A stretch of DNA of 27,678 bases from Myxococcota bacterium (GCA_041288095.1 JBGGMJ010000106.1:1-27678), one strand, 5' to 3'. Shown: positions 13,524 through 24,921, counted from the first letter of the stretch. Made by a program: numbers and translations. Notes: generated from the sequence alone by a model not told the origin.

Positions 13524-15209
13524 GTGGTTGGGCGGCGGCGTATCATCTGCTTCATCGTGCTCGCGCTGGCTGGCTGCCAAACGCGGGCGCGGTCCCTCGC
13601 GCCGGTAGAGCCAAGCGTGGAGCACCTCGTCTTCGATCTCGGCACGCCATGTTCGGCCGAGGGCGATTGTGTCTCCGGCTTCTGTGTTGACGGTGTCTGC
13701 TGCGACAGCGCGTGCGGCGGCGGCGTGCGTGACCTGCTGTCGTGCTCGAGCGTCTACGGCGCGGTGAATGGCTTGGTCGATGGCAGCTGCACCACGCTCC
13801 GCCGCGGCGACCCATGTGGCGTGGTCATTGCCGCCGAGCCCTGCCTCTGGCTCGGCTCGCGCGTGAACGGCGGTGGTCACTGTACGCCTCCCAGCGAAAC
13901 CGTAGGGAGCGCCTGTTTCCCGTGTGTCAACGCCGCGGATTGCGGCGGCGCGTTTCCGGTCTGCGTCGATGGTGCCTGCGGGGGGTGCGATGGCAACTTT
14001 GGCGACGGGACATCGGCTGCCTGTCCCGTCGCCAGCCCTGTTTGCAATAACGGACAGTGCGGTGGGTGCGGTGACTGCGCTGGCCTCGCGCCAGCGTGCG
14101 ACGGCCTGACCGGTATGTGCTCGCCGTGCAATGGCGATTACGGGTCCGACGCAACCCTGCCGTGTCCTCGCGGCGAGAGCCCTGCGTGCCTTGGCAACGG
14201 CGCTTGCGCGAGTTGCTCGGCGACCAACACGACTGCCTGCGAAGGCGCGACGCCAGCGTGCGACACGGCGACGAGCTCATGCGCGAGCTGCAACGGCGAC
14301 TACGGCTCGGCGGCGACGCGGGCGTGCGCTGACCTCGATGCGCCGCTATGCCTCGCCGGAGGGGGCTGCGGTCGTTGCAACACTAGCGCCGACTGCAATG
14401 GCGGTGATGTCTGTCTCCCGGCTCTGGGCACCTGCGGGCCGCCGTGCGCCAGCGATGCGCAGTGCGCGACCGGCGCGTGGTGTGCCGTGGGCGTGTGCAC
14501 GCCGAAGCTTCCGAACGGTAGCGCCTTGCCGGCGGCCGCGCTCGGTGCGGGTACGTGCGTCGACAAGCATGCCGCCCGCGCCTGCCTCTCCGGCACCTGC
14601 AGCGACACCGATCAGGTTTGCGGCTTGCCGAACGACACCAGCTGTTCCGCCGACTCCGAGTGCATCTCCGCGAAGTGCTTCGAGGCCGACCTCCGCTGCG
14701 GCATGCCGTTCCTCGAGGCTTGCTCCACGCCGGCGGTCTGCCGCTCGCGCAATTGCTCGCCTCTCAACACCTGCGGCGAGTGCCGCACCGACGCCGACTG
14801 CGGTGACGCCGATAGCGGCATCATCTGCGACGGCGTCGATCGCACGTGCAAGCCCGGCTGCAGGGGCGAAGAGGGCAATGGCTGCGCGGGCGGCCGGATC
14901 TGCAGCTCGACCGATGAGCGCGTTGGCAAGTGCTCCCAGTGCATCGACGACGCCGGCTGCGGCGGCGCCGCGTCGGGGCGCGTGTGTAACGAATCGCGCG
15001 CCTGCGTGAACGGCTGCCGCGGCGAGGGTGGCAATGGTTGCGGACCCGAGTCGGTGTGCTCCTCGAGCGACGGCACCATTGGGACCTGTAGCAGCGACGG
15101 CCCCGCGAGTTGCTCGTCCTCGGGTGGTTCGGACTTGTCGTTGGCCGTCGGCGGGCTCGCGGTGTTCGCTATCGCGGTCGCGAGGCGGTTGAAGCGCCGG
15201 TCTAGTTAG
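13524..15209 (+). CDS. Cysteine-rich repeat surface protein with N-terminal lipobox-like signal and MYXO-CTERM-like C-terminal anchor
   Basis: N-terminus RRRIICFIVLALAGC. Repeats C(N/D)G(D/N)(Y/F)G x3 and GCRGE.GNGC x2. C-terminus ASCSSSGG-hydrophobic-RRLKRR. Confidence 0.85.
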   Translation: MVGRRRIICFIVLALAGCQTRARSLAPVEPSVEHLVFDLGTPCSAEGDCVSGFCVDGVCCDSACGGGVRDLLSCSSVYGAVNGLVDGSCTTLRRGDPCGVVIAAEPCLWLGSRVNGGGHCTPPSETVGSACFPCVNAADCGGAFPVCVDGACGGCDGNFGDGTSAACPVASPVCNNGQCGGCGDCAGLAPACDGLTGMCSPCNGDYGSDATLPCPRGESPACLGNGACASCSATNTTACEGATPACDTATSSCASCNGDYGSAATRACADLDAPLCLAGGGCGRCNTSADCNGGDVCLPALGTCGPPCASDAQCATGAWCAVGVCTPKLPNGSALPAAALGAGTCVDKHAARACLSGTCSDTDQVCGLPNDTSCSADSECISAKCFEADLRCGMPFLEACSTPAVCRSRNCSPLNTCGECRTDADCGDADSGIICDGVDRTCKPGCRGEEGNGCAGGRICSSTDERVGKCSQCIDDAGCGGAASGRVCNESRACVNGCRGEGGNGCGPESVCSSSDGTIGTCSSDGPASCSSSGGSDLSLAVGGLAVFAIAVARRLKRRSS

Positions 15210-18157
15210 CCGCGCGGCGGCCTCGCGCGGATCGGCGCCGGCAGATTGCGGGTGAGAGCTCCGGTCACCGGGTCGACGTAGGCCTCCGCGCGCTCGAGGC
15301 CGGTGGCGGGATACACCTCGCCCTTGAGCGGATCGATGTTGATGTAGATGTACTGCCGCGCGTGCACGGGCGCGTCGGGGTTGATGAGGATCCGCGCCTG
15401 CACGAAGTTGTGGGCGAACAGGGCGCTGCCGTCTTCGCCGTTGCCCAGCATGTTGTTGGCGAACGGGCCACGCAGGACTTCGCGGAACTCGATGTCGGGG
15501 AACGTGTTCGCAAGCAGCGTGCCCAAGCTCGCGGTGAGCGGGCCGCAGGTGTCGTTGCTGTTGAAGCCGAGCGCCCGGAGCAGCGTCGAATTCTCCGCGA
15601 AGAACGTCTCCATGTTGTTGAACCAGGCCCAACCCGCCGAGCCATAGCCGAAGGTCACGGTGCCCGATGGGGTCGCGATTGAGTAGGCCGGGCGATTGTT
15701 GCCGCTGTCGATCTGCTGCGTCATGAACTGACCGAGCGCCGTGCGGAACACGCTCATCGCTTGCTGCTCGGTGAGGTCGCGCAGGCGGCCGTCGGGATCG
15801 TTGCGCCCGAGCCAACCGAGAACGCGATCGACGGGCGAGCCCAAGATCCCGTTAGCGTTCCCGGCGACGTTCAAGGGGCCGCTCGCGGCGAGCTCATCGG
15901 CGAGATACTGCTCCACTTCGGCAGGGGTGAGCCCGAGCGCGAGGAAGATTTGGGCGTCGTCGGCTGAGACGTTCATCTGCGCGAAGGTCTCGAGGTGGGT
16001 CGCGACCTCCGCCGGCGTGAAGGGGCTGACCTCCGCGGCGGGCGTGGTTCCGGTTGTTGGGCCGGGCAGGCGATCGAGATTGCCCGTCGGGTCGTAGGGG
16101 AAGGTGCCGTCGCGATTGGTCAGCGTGAAGGTGCCGTCGGGATTCATCGTGATGATCTCGTCACCACGCCGCATCAAGATGGTGCTGCCGTCTTGGCCCT
16201 CGATCACCATGATGTCGGTGCCGTCTTCGGTATGGATCCACGGGTCGCCGCCCGAGGGAGTCGCCGCGACACCCAGCGCCGCGACGAGATCCGCTGGGCT
16301 GAGGCGTCCGCCATTGGCGACAAGCGCCGCCCCGAGGTTACCGAGGATGCGCGCGCCGCGCTGATCACCGAACAGGTCGCGCAGCGACTGACCCAAGTCG
16401 GAGCTCGCGGTGAAGTTGGTGATGAAGCCGCCCGCCGCGCCACCCAGGGCCGAGATGAGCAGTGCGTCGCCGTTCAAGCGGCCGTCGGTGATGAGCTGAC
16501 GAACCACCGAGGCGCCGAAGTTGTTGGCGGCGCCGGCGAGAGCGCTGGTGAGAGCCGGGGTCAGCGCTCCCTGGAAGGTCTGCGTCACCCAGGCGCCAAA
16601 CTCGGCACCGACGACACCGCCGAGATAGGCAGCGACGCCGGCACGCAGCGCATCGAGGAAGGTGCCGCCATCCGCGAGGGTGATGGCGGCGCTCACCGCG
16701 GCGGCGACCACTGGCCCACCGACCACGCCGGCGACAATCGAGATGATGGCGCGACCGACAGGGCCTTCGAAGAAGCCCTGGCGACGCGCGTTGTTGGTCT
16801 CGATGGCCGCGGCGATGAATTCGCGGTTCGCGAGGATGCCGAAGCGCTCGTCGTAGCGGAACAGCATGTCGCGGACGGCTTCTTGCTGCTCTGGTGTCGT
16901 GGCGCCGCAGTCTTCGAAGATGTCCTCGAGCATCTTGCCGATGTCGTCGCCTAGCGGACCGATGTCGCCGATTTGCACCCATTCAGCAGCGAGGTGATCG
17001 TCGACGAGGGCGACGTAGGCGCGCTCGGGGCCGCCGCGCGTCGTAACGTCGGTGTCGGCATGCGAGTGGTCGAGCCAGGCATCGCCGGAGCCCGAGCCCG
17101 AGTTGTTGAAGGAGATCTGCAAATCGAGCGGCGCGTCTTCGGGGAGGCCGATGGCGCGGATGTAGTCGGCGCGTGTTCCGTAGGTCGGCCCGTAGGTGCC
17201 ACCGTCGTCGCCGCCGTTGTTGCCACCCGGCGCGAGCATGAAGCGCTCGTGCGTGTCGAGGTACTCGGCGATTTGCGCGGCGGTCTTTCCTTGCTCCGTT
17301 AAAGCGGCGATGGCTTCGTCGCGCGACAGGTACGTCGTCTCGAACGCGTATTGCGCGTTGTCGTGGAGGTGCTGCTGAAGGCTCGTGACTTCGTCGCTCG
17401 CGGCGAGGAGGTAGTGGCCGTGCGTGCTTGCTTGGCCACGCGCGGTGACGAGGGCCGAGAGCCACTCGTAGATCGAGTCTTGGCCGGTGCGTCCGCTGTC
17501 GCCGACGCCGTAGAACCAACCGCCTGGGGGCTCCGTCTGGAACGTACTGTCGAAGTGTGGATTGGCGGGGAGGAAGATTGGGGCGTCGATGGTGACTGGG
17601 GATACTCCCAGGTCGCTGAGCAACTGCGCGATGAGCGGCTCGAGCTCACTGCGCATGCGCTCGGCTTGGTCCGGCAGTCCTTGAGCGATGAGCTCGTCGA
17701 TGGACGCCATAGCGTTCAGCATGTTGTTGACGCGAAGCTCTAGCGCGTCGGGAATAGTGACGCCGTCGAGCTGCGCCAGAAGATCGCTTTGGCAGGGTCC
17801 GGGTTGGTCGCGCGTGAGTGATGGGTCGGAGCTTGGGTCTTCCTCGCCCTCGGGCAACAAGATGAGCGCGGCGTTGGCCTGCCGCGCCGCCTCGGCTTGC
17901 GCTCGTGCTTTCTCTTGTGCCGCCTCGGCTTCCGCTGCCGCGCAGGCGATCTTTACCGAGAGGTCTTCCGCGATAGCGGCTTGGTTCTCCCTGTTCTCCA
18001 GTCGCGCCTCGGCGAGGAGCCGCTGAGCGTCGAGACCCTCGGTCCCTTGATCAAGCGGCGGCAGGTACAAAGCCAACTCCCATGCAGAGGCTCCATCAAA
18101 ACTACCGACGGCGCCGGGAGGTGGCTGGACCCGTCGCTGACAGGGTGGCGGGGCCAA
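15206..18157 (-). CDS. Large modular hypothetical protein (983 aa): shared core, Gly-rich hydrophobic region and putative Cys-His-Asp enzyme domain; candidate effector
   Basis: Long ORF with clear paralogy to 18191-22441. C-terminal DTCG...AHNFV...YINIDP. The TTG start is uncertain. Confidence 0.85.
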   Translation of the reverse strand: MAPPPCQRRVQPPPGAVGSFDGASAWELALYLPPLDQGTEGLDAQRLLAEARLENRENQAAIAEDLSVKIACAAAEAEAAQEKARAQAEAARQANAALILLPEGEEDPSSDPSLTRDQPGPCQSDLLAQLDGVTIPDALELRVNNMLNAMASIDELIAQGLPDQAERMRSELEPLIAQLLSDLGVSPVTIDAPIFLPANPHFDSTFQTEPPGGWFYGVGDSGRTGQDSIYEWLSALVTARGQASTHGHYLLAASDEVTSLQQHLHDNAQYAFETTYLSRDEAIAALTEQGKTAAQIAEYLDTHERFMLAPGGNNGGDDGGTYGPTYGTRADYIRAIGLPEDAPLDLQISFNNSGSGSGDAWLDHSHADTDVTTRGGPERAYVALVDDHLAAEWVQIGDIGPLGDDIGKMLEDIFEDCGATTPEQQEAVRDMLFRYDERFGILANREFIAAAIETNNARRQGFFEGPVGRAIISIVAGVVGGPVVAAAVSAAITLADGGTFLDALRAGVAAYLGGVVGAEFGAWVTQTFQGALTPALTSALAGAANNFGASVVRQLITDGRLNGDALLISALGGAAGGFITNFTASSDLGQSLRDLFGDQRGARILGNLGAALVANGGRLSPADLVAALGVAATPSGGDPWIHTEDGTDIMVIEGQDGSTILMRRGDEIITMNPDGTFTLTNRDGTFPYDPTGNLDRLPGPTTGTTPAAEVSPFTPAEVATHLETFAQMNVSADDAQIFLALGLTPAEVEQYLADELAASGPLNVAGNANGILGSPVDRVLGWLGRNDPDGRLRDLTEQQAMSVFRTALGQFMTQQIDSGNNRPAYSIATPSGTVTFGYGSAGWAWFNNMETFFAENSTLLRALGFNSNDTCGPLTASLGTLLANTFPDIEFREVLRGPFANNMLGNGEDGSALFAHNFVQARILINPDAPVHARQYIYINIDPLKGEVYPATGLERAEAYVDPVTGALTRNLPAPIRARPPRG

Positions 18158-18190
18158 GTTGTTAACCAGACAGGCTCACGAATGACGTCG

Positions 18191-21100
18191 TTACTGACGG
18201 TTCACCGGGCCGGCGCGGTAGAGCAACCAGTAGAGAGACGCAAACGCATTGATGTGAGAGATGAAGCTCGTGCCCAGCCTCTGATTGGTGAGCGCGCGGG
18301 TACTGTCCTGCGCTTGCGACGTAGCGAGCACGCCGACCACCTGAATGCTGCCGTCGGGGAGCTTCACGAGCACCGGGCCGCCGCTCATGCCCGCGATAAC
18401 GGGCGGATTGCTGGCGCTCGCCGCCACGCCGGTGGTGACGACACCGTTGGTGCCGCCGGTCGCTCTGCCTGCCGCGCCCACGAGGTTCGTGCCGGTGTAC
18501 TGGCCGGCTACGTTGACGTTGCCCCAGGCGGCAAAGCCGAACTCGTAGACCGCGGCGCCGACGTTCGGGGGCGGACCAACCCGCGGGAGGTTCGCGAGCG
18601 AGGCACCCGGGCGCAGGGCGTTCAACGTCTCGGGTGAGAGAGTGACGAGGTAGCCGTCACTCGCCGCCGTCGAGCCCATGGCCACGCGACCGTTGTCGCC
18701 GGCGATGCCTGTCGACAGCATGGTCTGACCGTCGAACGGGATCTGCACGAGCCGACCCATGGTATCGCGCGCCGAGAGCACGGTGCTCTCGCCGGGCCTC
18801 ACGACGTGATTGGCGGTGATGAGCACGGCGCGATCGACGCCGTCGATGTTGGCGACCGCGAGCACCCCCGACGCGGAGTCACGACCCACTTGGCCGGGCT
18901 CGGACGTGTGAATCGCCACGGTGGCGAGCTGACCCGTGGCCACGACGTCGGCGGGGATGGTGCTGGCGACGAGCGACTGACCCGCCACGGCGCGGTCGGC
19001 CCAGAGACGCGCGGTATCGTGCGGTATGCCATAGCGGGCAGCATCGTTCACGTACTCCGTCGTGGTGCGCAGCTGGTCGGGATAGGAGACCGAGACGAAG
19101 ACGCCGTCTTGATAGTTGTACTGGACGGCTGGTTGTCCGGCGCTCGTGATCAAGATCTGCTGCGTGCCGGTGCGATAGTTGTTCGTCGCGTTGATGCTCA
19201 GGTTCGGGTTGGCGCGCAGCTCGTCGGCCATCGTACTGACCTGTTGCATCCTGGCGCCGGTGCCGGTTGCGACCCGGTCCAGGTTGGTTCGCACTCCCAT
19301 GAGCTCGCCGTTCATGAAGGCGTAGGTCACCTGCGTGCCTTCGCGCGTCCAGATGTCGATGATCTGAGCGCCTTGAGGTGTCTGATTGATCTCGACCGTG
19401 AGGTTCGGGTTCGAGGAGAGCGTGTTGAACGCGTTGCCCACCGCCATCATCCGGCGGGTCTTGGGGTCCGTCGGGATGACTTGAATGCCTGCCTCTTCCG
19501 CGGGTGGGACCTCGCCGCGTTGGACCTCTGGCGCGGCTCCCGGCGTGATGCCCATCGAGCGCAGCACTTCGGCTTCCTCGCTCGTGTAGCCGCGCGCTTC
19601 GTAGTCGCTGATGGCCGCGTCGGCCGGCGTCGCGCCATCGACGACCAGACTGCCTCCCGTGTCGTTTACCGAGCCGCTGCCGAGCACCAGCAGCGCGCTC
19701 TCCAAGTTGAGCTCGCCGCTGCCGGCGAGGCTGCCGGCTTGCGTGCCGATGAGGCGCGCCGTGGTGCCTGGAGCGAGGGCGAGCGAGCTGTCGACGTTCG
19801 CCACGATATCGGTGCCACTGACCGCCGTCGTCACCGCGCCGCCGACACCACCGGCAACTCCCGACATCAGCAGCGCGTCGCCGTCGATGCGGCCCGTTGC
19901 GATGAGCTGGCTCGTGAACGAGCTACTCACGCCCTGCGCAAAGCCGCTGGCCGCGGCGACCGTGGTCGCGCTCAAGCTGGAGCTCGCGAGCGACGAGGTC
20001 ACTGCGCCGCCGACACCGGCACCAGCCACGCCGCCGGCGTAGGCCGCGGCTCCCGCCGTCACGATGTCTCCGAGCGAGCCACCATCGTAGGCGGTGAAGG
20101 CCGCGCTCACGCCAGCAGCGAGCACGGGGCCGCCGACGACGGTCGCTACCACGGTCACCAGGGCGCGTCCGATGGCGCTCTGGAAGAAGCCATTGCCGCC
20201 GCGATTGTTGTTCATCTCCACCGCGGCTTTGACCAGGTCGCGGTTGGCGATGACGCCGTAGTTGGGGTCGTAGCGGAACAGCAAGCCTCGGACGATCTCT
20301 TGCTTCTCGGGCGTGTCGGCGCCGAACTGGCCGTAGACGTCGCCCAACATATTCGCGACGTCGTCGTAGATCGGACCCTTGTCGCCGATCTGAACCCATT
20401 CGCCAGCGAGCGCGTCGTTGGCGACCGCGTGGTAGGCGCGCGCAGCTGTAGCGCTGGGCTGTGTCAGATCCAACGTGCGGCGCGAGGTGTCGAGGTACGC
20501 GTCACCGCCGCGGGCGCGCGAGTTGTTGAATGAGATGGTCAGGTCGCGTGGCGTGTCCGCCGACAAGCCGATGACTCCGAAGTACGTTGCCTGGCTGCCG
20601 ATGCGCGCGGGGTAGAAGATGTCGCCGCTCTCGCCGCTGTATTGCGTGGGAGCGCCCACGACGTAAGCGCGGTCGGCGTCGGACGGGGCGCGCTGCTCGG
20701 CGGCTTCGAAGGCGGCACGCGTGCCGACCGTGCCGTCGGAGAGGAGGTAACCGCGGTTCGCCTCCGCGTATGCGGCGAGACCCGCGCCCGATAGACCCAG
20801 CTCGACCGCGGCTTGGAAGGTCGGCACGGCGACCGGTCGCGCGACTTGGACCATCGACATGCCGCCTTCGCCGTAGTTGTCGCCGGTAGCTTCGACGACG
20901 AGCTTCTCGACGAAGACCATCGCCTGCTCGTCTAGGTGCGCCTGCACGGTCGTTACCTGGTCGCTCGACGCGAGCAACACGTGCCCGCCGGTGCTCGCCT
21001 GCGCCGCGGCGATGACGTCGGCGGGGAGCCACTCGTAGACTCCGAGGTCGTGACCGGCGGCGCGGAGGTGCTGCGGTGCGGTACCGTAGACCGCGGGCGT

Positions 21101-22441
21101 GACGTAGTTGCCACTCTCGTCGGAGCCCATCACGGTTTCGGGTCGCAGGAGGTAAGCGCGGTCCGCCGCGCTCGGCGCCCGACCGTGCGCTGCTTCGAAC
21201 TCGGCACGCGTGCCGGTGGCGTGGTTGTTGATCATGTAGACGCCGTTTTGCTCGAGGTAGGCGGCGGCTTGCGCTGCGTCGAGGTTACGCTCGCGGGCCG
21301 CTTCGCCGATCGACACGGTGAACTGGCGCTCGACCTGGACCGTGGTGGCGTAGCTACTTTCGCCAACCTCCGTGTAGTGCATTTCGTCGACCGTGCGCGT
21401 GACGAGAACGAGCGCCTTGTCCTGGATGTATTGCTCGGCGGTGATCGCCTGGCCGGCGACGCTCTGTTGGCCGGTGGCGCCGGCATCGCCGATTGCCCAG
21501 AAAGGGTTGCCTTGCACCGCGACAGGAGCTGGCGGCGAGGGCGCGCTGATGTCCGCTGGAGCGGGCGCCGTTGGCGGAGCGGTCTCCGCCAGTCGAGCCG
21601 CCGTCGCCGCCTCGTCGAGCCAGGTGCCCGCGGCGAGGTGTTGTTCGGCGATGTTCGACCAGTAAGCGAGCGGTGCCGCGAGTTGCGCCGCGGTCGTCGG
21701 GTTGTAGTTGGCGGCGATCTGCGCCAGCGCGCTCGCGGTGAGCTCGGCAGCGGCTTGGTTGTCCGCCACGAAGCTGGGCGAGACGAGCCGCGCCGCGAGC
21801 GCTGCCGCGTGCTCGATCGGCGACTGTTGTGGCTCTTCAATGAGCACCGCGGCGTCCGCGCCGGTCGCGCTCGCCGCGGTCTCGCTCAGCACTTCTGCTT
21901 GCGCCATGGCGACGTCCGCTTGGGCGGCCGCGCTCATCGCAAACTGCGCGACCATCTCCGCTGACGCACCGCAATCCACCGCGAGCTCGCTCATTTCCTG
22001 CGCGACTGCCGCGGCCTCACTGGCGCCGGCGGCTGCGTCGAATGCGTACGCGTCGTACTGACCGGCGTCGGCGTTCATGGCCATCTGCGCCATCACCTGC
22101 GCCTCGCGGAAGCGCTCCATGGCGGCGTTGTACTGGGCGACCATGTCCTGCATCCGCGCGGCCGCGTTGAGGGCGCGCTCTTTGACGTCGTCGGAGCGCT
22201 CTTGCTGCGCTTCGGTGATGATGCGTTGGATGTCGAGCGCCAGGGCCGAGTCGTCGAAGTCCGGCAGGCGGCTCGGCGCGGGGGAGGCACCACCGAAGGC
22301 GCTGTATTGCCCACCGTCGTAGGTCAGCACGTCGAGCGACGCCTGCTGCTGCGGATCTGGTTGTGGCGATGACGCGTACGTGTCCGCGTCGACGGACTGG
22401 ATGCGAACCGAGGATGCGGAGTCGATGCGGGTGTCGCTCAT
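18191..22441 (-). CDS. Large modular protein (1416 aa): shared core, Gly-rich hydrophobic region and C-terminal trypsin-like serine protease; candidate effector
   Basis: ATG with GGAGA RBS. Triad motifs LITANHVV, SDGYLV and GMSGGPV near the C-terminus. Confidence 0.9.
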   Translation of the reverse strand: MSDTRIDSASSVRIQSVDADTYASSPQPDPQQQASLDVLTYDGGQYSAFGGASPAPSRLPDFDDSALALDIQRIITEAQQERSDDVKERALNAAARMQDMVAQYNAAMERFREAQVMAQMAMNADAGQYDAYAFDAAAGASEAAAVAQEMSELAVDCGASAEMVAQFAMSAAAQADVAMAQAEVLSETAASATGADAAVLIEEPQQSPIEHAAALAARLVSPSFVADNQAAAELTASALAQIAANYNPTTAAQLAAPLAYWSNIAEQHLAAGTWLDEAATAARLAETAPPTAPAPADISAPSPPAPVAVQGNPFWAIGDAGATGQQSVAGQAITAEQYIQDKALVLVTRTVDEMHYTEVGESSYATTVQVERQFTVSIGEAARERNLDAAQAAAYLEQNGVYMINNHATGTRAEFEAAHGRAPSAADRAYLLRPETVMGSDESGNYVTPAVYGTAPQHLRAAGHDLGVYEWLPADVIAAAQASTGGHVLLASSDQVTTVQAHLDEQAMVFVEKLVVEATGDNYGEGGMSMVQVARPVAVPTFQAAVELGLSGAGLAAYAEANRGYLLSDGTVGTRAAFEAAEQRAPSDADRAYVVGAPTQYSGESGDIFYPARIGSQATYFGVIGLSADTPRDLTISFNNSRARGGDAYLDTSRRTLDLTQPSATAARAYHAVANDALAGEWVQIGDKGPIYDDVANMLGDVYGQFGADTPEKQEIVRGLLFRYDPNYGVIANRDLVKAAVEMNNNRGGNGFFQSAIGRALVTVVATVVGGPVLAAGVSAAFTAYDGGSLGDIVTAGAAAYAGGVAGAGVGGAVTSSLASSSLSATTVAAASGFAQGVSSSFTSQLIATGRIDGDALLMSGVAGGVGGAVTTAVSGTDIVANVDSSLALAPGTTARLIGTQAGSLAGSGELNLESALLVLGSGSVNDTGGSLVVDGATPADAAISDYEARGYTSEEAEVLRSMGITPGAAPEVQRGEVPPAEEAGIQVIPTDPKTRRMMAVGNAFNTLSSNPNLTVEINQTPQGAQIIDIWTREGTQVTYAFMNGELMGVRTNLDRVATGTGARMQQVSTMADELRANPNLSINATNNYRTGTQQILITSAGQPAVQYNYQDGVFVSVSYPDQLRTTTEYVNDAARYGIPHDTARLWADRAVAGQSLVASTIPADVVATGQLATVAIHTSEPGQVGRDSASGVLAVANIDGVDRAVLITANHVVRPGESTVLSARDTMGRLVQIPFDGQTMLSTGIAGDNGRVAMGSTAASDGYLVTLSPETLNALRPGASLANLPRVGPPPNVGAAVYEFGFAAWGNVNVAGQYTGTNLVGAAGRATGGTNGVVTTGVAASASNPPVIAGMSGGPVLVKLPDGSIQVVGVLATSQAQDSTRALTNQRLGTSFISHINAFASLYWLLYRAGPVNRQ

Positions 22442-22537: not shown

Positions 22538-22554
22538 GGGGACGAGTCGTCCCC
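22538..22554. repeat. Perfect inverted repeat GGGGACGA-g-TCGTCCCC
   Basis: 8-bp arms with a 1-nt spacer, at the ATP-grasp stop and about 100 nt upstream of the 1416-aa gene. Confidence 0.6.
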
Positions 22555-23519
22555 TAGGGCGCGCGCTCGGAAGGCCGTGCGAAGAGGGCGTCGAGCATGT
22601 GCCGGTAGAATGACGGGTGCAGCAGCGGGTTGCAGTTGGCTTCGAGAAACCAGACCCGACCTTCTTGGTCGAGCACGGCGTCGAGCGAAAACGCAACGCC
22701 GGGTCGCAGCTCGGCGGGGATGGCGTCGAAGCATGCGCGTCCCGCGCTCTGCAGCTCGGCTTCGAGACGCGTTCCGGCGATGCTCTTGCGCACGTCGTGG
22801 TCGATGCTGATCGCGGGGTTCATCGGCGACATGTATTGATAGTCCGCGAAGGCGACCTGGCGATCCGTCAAGACGGACTCCGGGTCGAGGCCCTGGAGCT
22901 TCGCGACATTGGCGAAGTGCCGTGGCAGCGCCACGCCCGCGTCGAGGCGAGCGGCAACGAGGTCACCCAGCGTTTGTTGCCCGTCACCCTGCACCATGGG
23001 CATGGCGACGTGTTCGGCGACCACGAGCTCGGCATCCCAGTACCAGGCCTTCACCAAGCTCCCGAAGATGAAGCGCTCGCAGAATTCGCCGGGCGCGAGC
23101 TGCACCGGGGTGCCCGCGGCGAACGGGCCGCGCTGACCTTGGCCGAGGGACGACCTACTGGTCTTGACGATGAAGGGAGCGGCGAGCGGTGTGTCGGCCC
23201 ATGAGTCCGGAGTTGGGATGTTGTGGGTGCGGGCGAAGGCCTTGAAGGCGGCTTTGTCTTGGGCGATCGGCCAGCCTTTGGCGGGGTAGGGCAGCCAGCT
23301 TACGAAGCCGATGACGCTGGGCTTGAGATCGCGGGCAAAGCTGACGGTGCCATCGGGCTTCAACTCGAAGAACTGGGGAGTGAATCTGTGGGTGGTGCCG
23401 TCGCAGGTGATCTCGAGGTGCAGGGTGACCGGATTGATGCCGCCACCGGCGCGGTGGGTGGTCATCCACTGAGCCACGGCTTCCACGTGGCGGAGGAAGT
23501 TGCGCTTGAAGGCCTCCAT
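22554..23519 (-). CDS. ATP-grasp fold ligase (321 aa)
   Basis: Motifs QDKAAFK...IPTP, PFIVK...SLGQG, CERFIFG, VQGDGQQTL and FSLDAV...WFLEANCNP. Start trimmed to ATG 23519 (MEAFKRN) because the longer ORF overlaps the kinase gene. Confidence 0.8.
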   Translation of the reverse strand: MEAFKRNFLRHVEAVAQWMTTHRAGGGINPVTLHLEITCDGTTHRFTPQFFELKPDGTVSFARDLKPSVIGFVSWLPYPAKGWPIAQDKAAFKAFARTHNIPTPDSWADTPLAAPFIVKTSRSSLGQGQRGPFAAGTPVQLAPGEFCERFIFGSLVKAWYWDAELVVAEHVAMPMVQGDGQQTLGDLVAARLDAGVALPRHFANVAKLQGLDPESVLTDRQVAFADYQYMSPMNPAISIDHDVRKSIAGTRLEAELQSAGRACFDAIPAELRPGVAFSLDAVLDQEGRVWFLEANCNPLLHPSFYRHMLDALFARPSERAP

Positions 23520-23640
23520 GGGTGCATAGCGTACACCAGATCGTCGTACGACGCGGGAAGGGCGGCGCGTCGTAGCGAATCGAGTAGACTCTGATTCGTT
23601 AACGAGGCTCGAAGGCGAAGCTAGTGGTTGGGGGACAACG

Positions 23641-24921
23641 GTGGAGAGGACTGGAAATCGTTTGGCTTCGGACAAACCTGCAGCGCGTTGGTCGGTGAGT
23701 GCGCCGGTGGTGCCGCGGACCTCAACGCTGCGCCCCGAGTGGAGCACCTTCAACATCAGCGAGACCGGGATGTTCGTCTCGGGCTCGCCGCTGTTGCGTC
23801 CAGGCTCGGTGGTCGACGTCGGCATCACCTTGGGGCCGTCACTCGAGATCACGAGTCGTGTGGAGGTGGTGTGGACGCGCGGACAGCCTGACGCGAGCCG
23901 CAACCGTCCCGCCGGCATGGGCATGCGCTTCCTGGGCATCGACGCCCGCATGCATGCCGAGCTCAGGGCCTACCTCGCCCAGCTCCCAACGCGTCAAGGC
24001 AACACGGCGGCGCAGGTGGCGAAGACCGTCGTCGAGGCGCGTCCGCCACCGCCGCCCCCTCCAGCTGACGTGTCGCGTGCCGTGCAGAAAGGCGCAAAGC
24101 TCGGCAGGTACACCATCGTCGACCGCATCGGGTCGGGCGGGATGGGCGACGTATTTCTCGCCGAGCACACGCTGCTCGGCCGTCGCGTCGCGCTCAAGCT
24201 CCTGAAGGAAGAGCACGTCCACGACCGCGCTGCCTTGCGACGCCTCTACGATGAAGCGCGGCTCGTCAATCAGATCTCCCACGACAGCATCGTGCAGATC
24301 ACCGACCTCGTGGTCGAAGATGCCTACGTGTTCATCGTCATGGAGCTGTTGGTCGGCCAGAACTTGAGCGAGGTGCTGCTCCGAGGTGGTCCGCTGCCGC
24401 TATCGCGGATTGTGCCCATCGGCCAGCAGATCTGCAGCGTCCTCGATGCCGTCCACCGCGCCGGCATCGTCCACCGCGACCTCAAGCCCCAGAACATCAT
24501 GCTGGTGCGCCACACCCTCGCCCCCGACTTCGTGAAGCTCCTCGATTTCGGCATCGCAAAGCTCCGCAGCGCAATGGCGCCCGACGGACCGGAGACGATG
24601 GCCGGCGAGGTGGTGGGCTCGCCGGGCTACACGGCTCCCGAGCAGCTCAATGGCGGGCCGGTCGACGCGCGGACGGACATTTACAGTTTGGGCGGAGTGC
24701 TGTTCGCGATGCTCACGGCGCAGCTGCCGTTCAAAGCATCGGGATGGGCGGAGATGGTCGTGCGGCAGATGCAAGAGCCGCCGCGGCCGCCGAGCTCGGT
24801 GATCGGGAAGGGCGTGCCGAAGGTGCTCGACGAGTTGGTTGTGCGGTGCTTGGATCGGGATCCGAACAAGCGACCGGCGAGCGCGGCGGAGGTTGCGGCG
24901 GTGTTGCGGCAGGTGGGGTGA
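23641..24921 (+). CDS. PilZ-like domain fused to a Hanks-type Ser/Thr protein kinase
   Basis: PilZ part NISETGMFV...EVVW...GMGMRF, then a Pro-rich linker, then GSGGMG, VALK, HRDLKPQN, DFG and APE. Confidence 0.92.
   Translation: MERTGNRLASDKPAARWSVSAPVVPRTSTLRPEWSTFNISETGMFVSGSPLLRPGSVVDVGITLGPSLEITSRVEVVWTRGQPDASRNRPAGMGMRFLGIDARMHAELRAYLAQLPTRQGNTAAQVAKTVVEARPPPPPPPADVSRAVQKGAKLGRYTIVDRIGSGGMGDVFLAEHTLLGRRVALKLLKEEHVHDRAALRRLYDEARLVNQISHDSIVQITDLVVEDAYVFIVMELLVGQNLSEVLLRGGPLPLSRIVPIGQQICSVLDAVHRAGIVHRDLKPQNIMLVRHTLAPDFVKLLDFGIAKLRSAMAPDGPETMAGEVVGSPGYTAPEQLNGGPVDARTDIYSLGGVLFAMLTAQLPFKASGWAEMVVRQMQEPPRPPSSVIGKGVPKVLDELVVRCLDRDPNKRPASAAEVAAVLRQVG

Follow-up and report, generated by a model that had tools for sequence, protein, structure and literature searches.

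A stretch of 27,678 bases from a Myxococcota bacterium (GCA_041288095.1 JBGGMJ010000106.1:1-27678), considered here at its full length and called the window, has a GC content of about 67% and carries rpoB and rpoC on its plus strand. Two adjacent genes on its minus strand encode giant proteins of 1416 and 983 residues, labelled W1416 and W983. These are best read, with a confidence a little above even, as rare, genus-restricted polymorphic effectors, in which a phage-related body would engage or cross a target membrane and present an exchangeable enzyme. The conserved body would carry a C-terminal enzyme (the tip) that is exchangeable and mostly protease-like. The N-terminal region would serve export or assembly, and a hydrophobic module would insert into or cross the target membrane, so that the enzyme would reach its substrate inside a competitor or a prey organism's cell. 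The sequences show paralogy, modular tips, tip exchange, and homologies to phage and Rhs-type proteins; secretion, membrane insertion, toxicity and the target are inferred.

Polymorphic toxins are already known, and so are cases, the MuF toxins (PMC5576092), in which a phage virion domain acts as carrier. What was not found described in the papers searched is the body itself, its apparent lack of any trafficking domain or fold already known, its relatives in phages, and the correspondence of its hairpin to the Rhs/DUF637 pre-toxin element. No published account of the family was found in the literature either, which is weak evidence, as families are not searchable by sequence there. If the effector reading holds, the two proteins would represent a new type of carrier among polymorphic toxins, devoid of any known trafficking domain and with a core of unknown fold, in a predatory phylum about whose means of killing little is known. 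The family also ties together an uncharacterised N4-like phage protein, the likewise uncharacterised Rhs/DUF637 pre-toxin hairpin and protease-tipped bacterial proteins. With this link, whether the hairpin serves in membrane insertion or translocation becomes a question that small constructs could answer directly. The homologies themselves are solid, and the distribution appears very narrow; as tipped forms were found in one uncultured soil genus only, their ecological weight is probably small.

Body and tips of the paralogues

W1416 and W983 are true paralogues, judging from their sequences. BLASTP aligns residues 468-909 of W1416 with residues 229-616 of W983 (172 of 442 positions identical, or 39%; E 6e-69 with compositional adjustment), over the YEWL, ISFNNS, EWVQIGD and LFRYD blocks and the Gly/Ala-rich hydrophobic region. 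Past the shared part, the two sequences are aligned neither by BLASTP nor by MAFFT. The initial annotation, which had described two large co-oriented open reading frames (ORFs) sharing core blocks and a hydrophobic Gly/Ala region before diverging into different tips, is thus borne out, with both ORFs on the minus strand and a spacing of 33 nt that applies only if TTG 18157 is the start of W983. Of the two further resemblances that it listed, the N-terminal motif has a pairwise E of only 2.0 and is not aligned by MAFFT, although similar LP..D..LD..R(I/L)(I/L).EA strings are present in most long homologues. The short 'helical motif' (EEAEVLRSMGITP versus DDAQIFLALGLTP) is set aside: it is aligned by neither program, its copy in W983 sits past residue 715, where the match to the closest paralogue (C90) ends, and the resemblance is treated as chance. 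The cores of W1416 and W983 are 49% identical and fall in separate clades, and the pair is, on sequence grounds, not a recent tandem duplication.

The genome (5.85 Mb in 212 contigs, 90% complete) holds five copies, namely W1416, W983, C90 (1337 residues), C105 (1499 residues) and C194 (1260 residues), all with open frames of 983-1499 residues and no internal stops. The domain order was read from a MAFFT alignment of eight long forms, in which 82 columns are invariant. It runs from a hydrophilic N-terminus and helical region to an alpha/beta core, a Gly/Ala-rich hydrophobic module, a short linker, the tip and, mostly, an Arg/Gly/Pro-rich stretch of ten last residues (Table 1). The Ala/Gln/Glu-rich helical region measures 150-300 residues across the long forms. 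The N-terminus of W1416 is 56-59% identical to those of C194, L013 and L015; its residues 1-300 retrieve nothing beyond noise from Pfam at E <= 5, and no hydrophobic N-terminal signal or signal peptide is visible in the translations of W1416 and W983.

The core of W1416 is internally duplicated, with repeats at about residues 330-470 (positions 21032-21454) and 490-630 (20552-20974), which are 38% identical over 133 residues (E 9e-22). Its motifs Y.WL, ISFN, WVQIGD.GP..DD, LF(R/K)YD..(F/Y)G and NN.R..GFF are strongly conserved. AlphaFold2, supplied with a 20-row alignment, modelled residues 205-475 of W983 with a mean predicted local distance difference test score (pLDDT) of 82.7 and a predicted template modelling score (pTM) of 0.76. 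Foldseek found no convincing match for this model (best E 1.5 in the PDB and 0.6 in BFVD). No fold known from adhesins, S-layers or toxin carriers was recognised in it, and this is not proof of a new fold. Whole proteins and segments gave no family for the body in Pfam, NCBIfam, PHROG or the PDB (Pfam at E <= 0.01 for whole proteins and E <= 5 for segments, NCBIfam at E <= 0.1). The suggestion of an undescribed delivery chassis agrees with this lack of any family, and is weakened by a homology to pre-toxin hairpins (see below) and by the absence of linked secretion genes.

The hydrophobic module spans about 180 residues, with strong hydrophobicity limited to its first stretch; hydropathy (KD19) peaks at 2.3 in W983 (centres 474-493) and at 2.1 in W1416 (centres 764-777), and structure prediction renders the module as helices of low confidence. 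The linker region that follows it in W1416 has no Pfam match; it is kept in C194, P0008, L013, L015 and P0011, and missing from clade B of the tree described below. At the other end of the tip, the Arg/Gly/Pro-rich tail (e.g., R-G-G-K-P, R-R-P-G-G or R-A-R-P-P-R-G) occurs in 9 of 12 long forms whatever the tip, the exceptions being L014, L015 and P0011, and lies at 15209-15240 (W983) and 18194-18225 (W1416) in the window. A K/R-G(-G) ending is found in five of eight phage-type short forms. The tail may act as a signal for sorting or for processing.

The tip of W1416 is likely a divergent trypsin-like protease. In an alignment of five tips of this type, H78, D128 and S219 are invariant (5/5) and occur in that order, together with the motif G-(M/S)-S-G-G. 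The corresponding profile had four matches in the PDB (E 0.026-0.076), to a fibrinolytic enzyme, an elastase, a proproteinase E and a subunit filed under procarboxypeptidase A-S6, all of which we take, from their entry names, to be chymotrypsin-type serine proteases or zymogens. The G-x-S-G-G of the tips falls on the GDSGGP of the chain in both printed alignments, and Pfam Trypsin_2 (PF13365) is recognised in two of the five tips (best E 2.4e-4). Lipase matches returned by a single-sequence search of the PDB with the W1416 tip were noise. L012 carries another protease tip, which is distant from that of W1416 (31% identity).

The W983 tip is possibly a papain-like Cys-His enzyme, which is a lead only. 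One Cys-then-His arrangement compatible with such an enzyme can be seen by eye. Atlas feature neighbours of W983 include papain-fold toxin, transglutaminase-like and Peptidase_C71 clusters, all below 0.9, and its Atlas structure rows (Cif, Josephin and UCH) have template modelling (TM) scores of 0.27-0.34, all under the bar set by the tool and based on an Atlas model with a pLDDT of 0.41. No relatives of this tip were found in 400 other genomes of the phylum, in two word-index searches (longer and near-length proteins), or among PDB sequences at E <= 10.

Other tips are diverse. C90 and P0005 have a common tip (60% identity), in which an H-G and an A-C motif (His..Cys) are invariant; for C90, Atlas offers Peptidase_C80 as a lead at 0.84 (below 0.9). 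The C105 tip has an HExxH motif, with no support from Pfam and nothing above noise in a PDB search. L014/P0012 ends in a tail of about 1000 residues with the Pfam domain PT-TG (35 bits versus a cut-off of 23.5), which is found in this one of the 12 long forms; a 32-residue match of the L014 tail to a kinase-like ATP-binding protein in the PDB (E 0.75) is a lead only, and a C-terminal motif within it weakly resembles the catalytic loop of ABC1/UbiB-type kinases (the same E). Together with P0029, L014 (L014:9122-14497, in a sister genome) represents a third long-form lineage with another N-terminus and a repeated segment of the 'tested-by-V..D.NN..(I/V)G.VDG' type.

How tips are distributed over bodies was read against a maximum-likelihood tree of the conserved 295 residues, with 21 rows (12 long and nine short forms); the fragments P0003, P0007, P0009, P0013 and P0019, which are duplicates of own-genome copies or partial, were left out. 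The long forms group together (support 93/95), next to the phage and short forms, and split into two sub-clades. Clade A (100/100) contains W1416, C194, L013, L015, P0008 and P0011, that is, six of the 12 long forms. Clade B (99/98) unites W983 with C90 (100/98) and P0005 with C105 and L012 (99/99), the latter two being sisters (100/99). Its five proteins carry four types of tip, whose distribution disagrees with the core tree: the cores of C105 and L012 are 78% identical, and their tips are of the HExxH and the protease type, respectively; W983 and C90 have cores that are 68% identical and different tips; and C90 and P0005 have their common tip despite their separate branches. The junctions are sharp and follow a shared linker. 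For example, W983 and C90 are 63% identical over residues 65-715, and similarity then stops sharply at residue 715. A conserved body with exchangeable C-terminal domains is the pattern of polymorphic toxins, which this half of the family displays at the sequence level.

Relatives among Rhs-type and phage proteins

A HMMER search of 1.84 billion representative sequences with a core profile gave 31 matches at E <= 1e-3, 17 of them at E <= 1e-10; a Pfam scan covered 27 of the 31. The weak matches (E 5e-9 to 8e-4) cover the hydrophobic module alone. Among them, P0024 (E 1.2e-6) contains Pfam DUF637 (PF04830; 33.7 bits versus a cut-off of 26.6) over profile positions 94-168 only, i.e., the C-terminal part of the domain, and P0023 scores just under the cut-off (24.6 bits). 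P0030 is an RHS/SpvB/TcdB protein of 2188 residues, matched by the module in its C-terminal region (1951-2037). With a 12-row alignment of the module, hhalign gave a probability of 96.5% against P0024 (E 9e-10, 56 columns) and of 92.7% against P0031. In both fragments the match begins immediately after a D-P-x-G motif, probably the one that ends Rhs cores. The first 56 or so residues of the module therefore appear homologous to a hairpin of Rhs-/DUF637-type pre-toxin regions, W1416 and W983 being connected to it through a transitive link. DUF637 figures among the pre-toxin domains listed by Zhang et al. 2012 (PMC3482391), and a Pseudomonas CDI paper (contact-dependent inhibition; PMC4725963) describes it as small, helical and of unknown function. 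The initial annotation had seen no RHS, haemagglutinin, LXG, PAAR, VgrG or MIX marker; the empty Pfam and NCBIfam searches agree with it, and the start of the module now qualifies it.

The same hairpin occurs with a conserved acidic N-terminal helix pattern in four metagenomic proteins of 151-283 residues (P0023, P0027, P0032 and P0033), and inside longer proteins (P0035 and P0036). It looks like a mobile module present in many unrelated architectures.

Core and hydrophobic module also occur together in eight short forms of 395-660 residues (P0014-P0018 and P0020-P0022). None of these eight aligned proteins has the helical N-terminal extension or a tip; a ninth match, P0029 (796 residues), covers part of the core only. 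A scan of IMG/VR retrieved three loci, two of which correspond to P0014 and P0017 in contig source and length, the third being nearly identical to P0015 in the tree. The three viral contigs present the same order (3/3), with tail genes followed by lysis genes, an unknown gene (385-846 residues), the homologue and three genes for proteins of 152-399 residues; endolysin and spanin were found on two of them (L028 and L029). On two contigs (L027 and L029) a gene for a giant protein comes next; on all three, the homologue lies three genes upstream of such a gene or of the contig end. L027 encodes a giant protein that matches phrog_2206 (virion RNA polymerase), that of L029 matches the polyvalent-protein domains LPD5 and LPD1 as well as phrog_616, and the major capsid protein of the phage contigs is of the N4 gp56 type. 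These phage homologues were absent from the initial annotation.

Phage N4 has genes for membrane-inserting ejection proteins next to that of its virion polymerase, and its tail plug, gp53, blocks the tube with short helices arranged as a 'hydrophobic knot' (PMC13434306). Polyvalent proteins, for their part, are described as delivered together with DNA (PMC5512222). A search of 50,697 GenBank phage records by tblastn with P0016 and P0017 had no match. Pseudoalteromonas phage vB_Pun_Y3 encodes a similarly placed protein of 519 residues, which was considered and found to be unrelated (hhalign 0.6%). In this phage, a capsid relative of the phage contigs, a giant protein of 3421 residues is followed by one of 1027 residues annotated as an ADP-ribosyltransferase (L030; record 24147-37521); this is a further case, in this phage group, of enzyme-bearing proteins that are large and probably injected.

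Comparison with known systems delimits what is familiar in the family. Like the polymorphic toxins (Rhs/YD, CdiA, LXG and PAAR-linked) treated by Zhang et al. 2012 (PMC3482391), it has N-terminal and central parts that are conserved, enzymes at the C-terminus that are exchanged, several paralogues per genome, probable peptidase-type tips and, less clearly, a pre-toxin element (PT-TG in one paralogue, and in all a hairpin that appears homologous to the Rhs/DUF637 one). Unlike them, W1416 and W983 have no RHS/YD, TPS/FHA, LXG/WXG, PAAR, VgrG or MuF domain and no signal peptide; the family lacks linked secretion genes and, in four of five own copies, an adjacent immunity gene; its central core has no known fold; and half of its long forms (clade A) have an invariant tip. 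With the MuF toxins of temperate phages (PMC5576092) it would share a phage virion-associated domain as the conserved part of a polymorphic toxin. Pfam finds no MuF (Phage_Mu_F) domain in W1416 and W983, the tipped forms are chromosomal, among housekeeping genes and not in prophages, and the phage forms are tip-less.

As in DUF637, the helical pre-toxin domain of CdiA/FHA-type proteins, and at the start of Rhs C-terminal regions, the hairpin stands upstream of a variable toxin domain; it differs in being missed by the Pfam model and in continuing into about 130 more Gly/Ala-rich residues. Finally, the phage short forms resemble gp50-gp53 of N4 (Schitoviridae; PMC13434306) in that their genes belong to the late block and neighbour that of a giant protein which is injected, and gp53 and gp51 in joining a soluble part to C-terminal hydrophobic helices. 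They show no detectable sequence homology to gp51 and gp53, the gene order differs by one gene, and their location in the virion is putative.

Distribution and competing readings

The family is very rare and its tipped forms appear restricted to one uncultured soil genus. A word-index search of 5.8 billion proteins gave six matches. The core profile was found in three of 401 genomes of the phylum (the present one and two of the three others of the genus) and in none of the 397 outside the genus (0/397), with two to five divergent copies per genome. The five own copies and their several tip types are in line with the candidate family that the initial annotation had proposed. The named records are a metagenome-assembled genome (MAG) of a 'Myxococcota bacterium', which has three copies, and another MAG that bears the label 'uncultured Bdellovibrionales'; of ten proteins whose names were looked up, none had more than 'hypothetical protein' (1/10). 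DNA of the window occurs in three DNA runs, all from one soil study, and no RNA run is listed. A scan of metagenome contigs with the core produced 590 pattern matches and no relative (zero).

Several findings weigh against the effector reading. The pattern of a conserved region with a variable C-terminus, which the initial annotation had generalised from the pair, holds in clade B (four tip types in five proteins) and fails in clade A, where a single protease tip is invariant in all six members, W1416 included. The W1416 tip itself has no Pfam match, Trypsin_2 included. The W983 tip has no relatives, in the sequences searched, against which conservation of its putative Cys and His could be measured. 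The module has a single strongly hydrophobic segment, which would equally suit a simple membrane anchor. The Pfam DUF637 model finds nothing on the hydrophobic segments (E <= 5) or in the genome (E <= 10), so that the hairpin is a related one and not a member of DUF637. PT-TG is not found at the family loci of this genome, with one sub-threshold row elsewhere (C149, E 1.87, 11.1 bits). In the phages, comparison of the short forms with N4 gp51/gp53 by hhalign gave 1.0%, 0.3% and 0.7%, a miss that is uninformative, since the counterparts in N4 and DEV are already less than 10% identical (PMC13434306). The phage homologue is plausibly a plug or ejection component because of its place in the late block beside the giant protein, the one observation that points to this role.

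The genomic context adds to these points. The five own copies have unrelated neighbours (rpoBC, PilZ-kinase, FecR, BNR, radical SAM, Ada, dehydrogenase, TPR and LPG synthase genes), and no candidate immunity gene follows four of the five. W1416 is followed by W983, and W983, C90 and C194 by, respectively, a convergent Cys-rich ORF of 561 residues, a gene for a FecR protein and one for a TPR protein; only C105 has a same-strand ORF downstream, for a protein of 298 residues and unknown family. The convergent genes of 561 and 560 residues downstream of W983 and C194 were ruled out as a conserved partner, being mutually unrelated. Absent immunity genes would fit enzymes acting on non-self or extracellular targets, and they also depart from the classical definition of a polymorphic toxin.

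No export signal or linked secretion system was found at the five own loci, and VipB (type VI secretion), Phage_sheath_1 and VirB4 were each not detected in the four genomes of the genus (0/4). FHIPEP is present in all four (4/4) and flagellin in three (3/4). A second FHIPEP copy (own contig C31, G000:C31:3248-5395) was considered as part of a type III cluster and turned out to be solitary, with no recognisable cluster. In G030, G066 and G086, flagellin genes stand beside one FHIPEP copy and a second copy is solitary; the present assembly has the solitary copy only, and no flagellin. A type III-type export route would fit the unstructured N-terminus, which is only a guess.

A competing account takes W1416 and W983 to be membrane proteins of their own cell and not delivered effectors. 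The hydrophobic segment would be a signal anchor that leaves the first 450-750 residues on the cytoplasmic side and the C-terminal protease in the periplasm, with a role in envelope maintenance, signalling or protein processing. The lack of a signal peptide, the presence of one segment only with KD19 above 2, the unlinked secretion system and immunity gene and the invariant protease tip of clade A all speak for it. We nevertheless consider it unlikely, as close paralogues exchange tips, one paralogue has PT-TG, the hairpin is homologous to Rhs-/DUF637-type pre-toxin segments, tip-less homologues stand in a phage late-gene block, and two to five divergent copies per genome are confined to one genus, features that would be unusual for housekeeping membrane proteases.

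The effector reading has a bolder version, which we regard as speculative and somewhat more doubtful than the own-cell account. The body would be a domesticated podophage tail-plug or ejection protein whose alpha/beta core and hydrophobic knot allow it to exit the producer and to insert unaided into the prey envelope, carrying an exchangeable protease with it and dispensing with type III, type IV and type VI secretion and contractile injection, and the hairpin would be a mobile translocation element of Rhs and CdiA proteins. If such a self-translocating, phage-derived chassis exists, it would give the Rhs/CdiA pre-toxin hairpin its first function.

Phage descent could also be taken to mean that W1416 and W983 are domesticated or decaying structural genes, derived from a podophage tail plug or ejection protein, with no effector role and with tips that are lysis-type or virion-associated enzymes. 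The homology of core and hydrophobic module to proteins on three viral contigs, and the position of the long-form clade beside the phage and short forms, are consistent with this. Such genes would hardly be expected to form five own copies without flanking phage genes (none flanks any of the five), with intact frames and no stops inside, conserved over three genomes of the genus and bearing an N-terminal extension and tips that the aligned short forms all lack; we find this account improbable, even more so than the self-translocating chassis. Chance or compositional similarity of Ala/Gly-rich ORFs, or mis-called ORFs, might be feared where high GC gives many long spurious ORFs and the N-terminal regions are of low complexity, and is already refuted by the compositionally adjusted E-value of the paralogue alignment, the 82 columns invariant in eight proteins, the homologues in other genomes and phages, and the confident structure model of the core.

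Gene boundaries and neighbouring genes

The features of the two proteins and the gene directly upstream are collected in Table 1.

Table 1. Features of the window discussed in the text, with positions counted from its first base.
Feature	Position	Strand	Description
W1416 gene	18191..22441	-	1416 residues plus stop; clade A; from ORF list and translation
W1416 1-300	21542..22441	-	Hydrophilic N-terminus, then Ala/Gln/Glu-rich helical region; conserved in clade A
W1416 305-749	20195..21529	-	Soluble alpha/beta core with internal duplication; from BLASTP to W983 and long-form alignment
W1416 750-935	19637..20194	-	Gly/Ala-rich hydrophobic module; from module alignment, hydropathy and hhalign to Rhs-type fragments
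W1416 936-1134	19040..19636	-	Clade-A-specific linker region preceding the tip
W1416 1135-1416	18194..19039	-	Tip, likely a divergent trypsin-like serine protease; predicted triad His1212, Asp1262, Ser1353
W983 gene	15206..18157	-	983 residues from TTG 18157, more likely 954 residues from TTG 18070; clade B
W983 205-470	16748..17545	-	Soluble alpha/beta core; AlphaFold2 model
W983 461-633	16259..16777	-	Gly/Ala-rich hydrophobic module; first ~56 residues a hairpin apparently shared with Rhs-/DUF637-type pre-toxin regions
W983 634-715	16013..16258	-	Short linker common to C90; tip junction at its end
W983 716-983	15209..16012	-	Orphan tip; a papain-like Cys-His enzyme is a possible lead
ATP-grasp-like gene	22554..23951	-	465-residue ORF, probably ~325 residues; directly upstream of W1416

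The start of W983 is likelier to be TTG 18070 (residue 30) than TTG 18157. No ribosome-binding site precedes the latter, a GGGAG lies 6 nt upstream of the former, and gene callers in two collections place the start at residues 28 and 30. With TTG 18070 as the start, the two genes would be 120 nt apart, and the 'FDGAS' string of W983, being upstream of it, would not be translated.

The gene directly upstream of W1416 matches Pfam ATPgrasp_YheCD with 22.3 bits, under the cut-off of 26.8. An orthologue (L015:7557-8507), 77% identical over residues 141-457, lies directly upstream of L015 on the same strand; the gene was not found near L013. The 465-residue ORF and the PilZ-kinase gene overlap over about 310 nt, so that translation of the former probably begins close to residue 141.

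On the plus strand, the ORF of 561 residues that converges on W983 (13524-15209) has repeated Cys motifs and no family in Pfam or NCBIfam, and overlaps the stop codon of W983 by 4 nt. The Ser/Thr protein kinase encoded at 23641-24921 (Pfam Pkinase, 167 bits) carries a PilZ domain at its N-terminus (48.5 bits).

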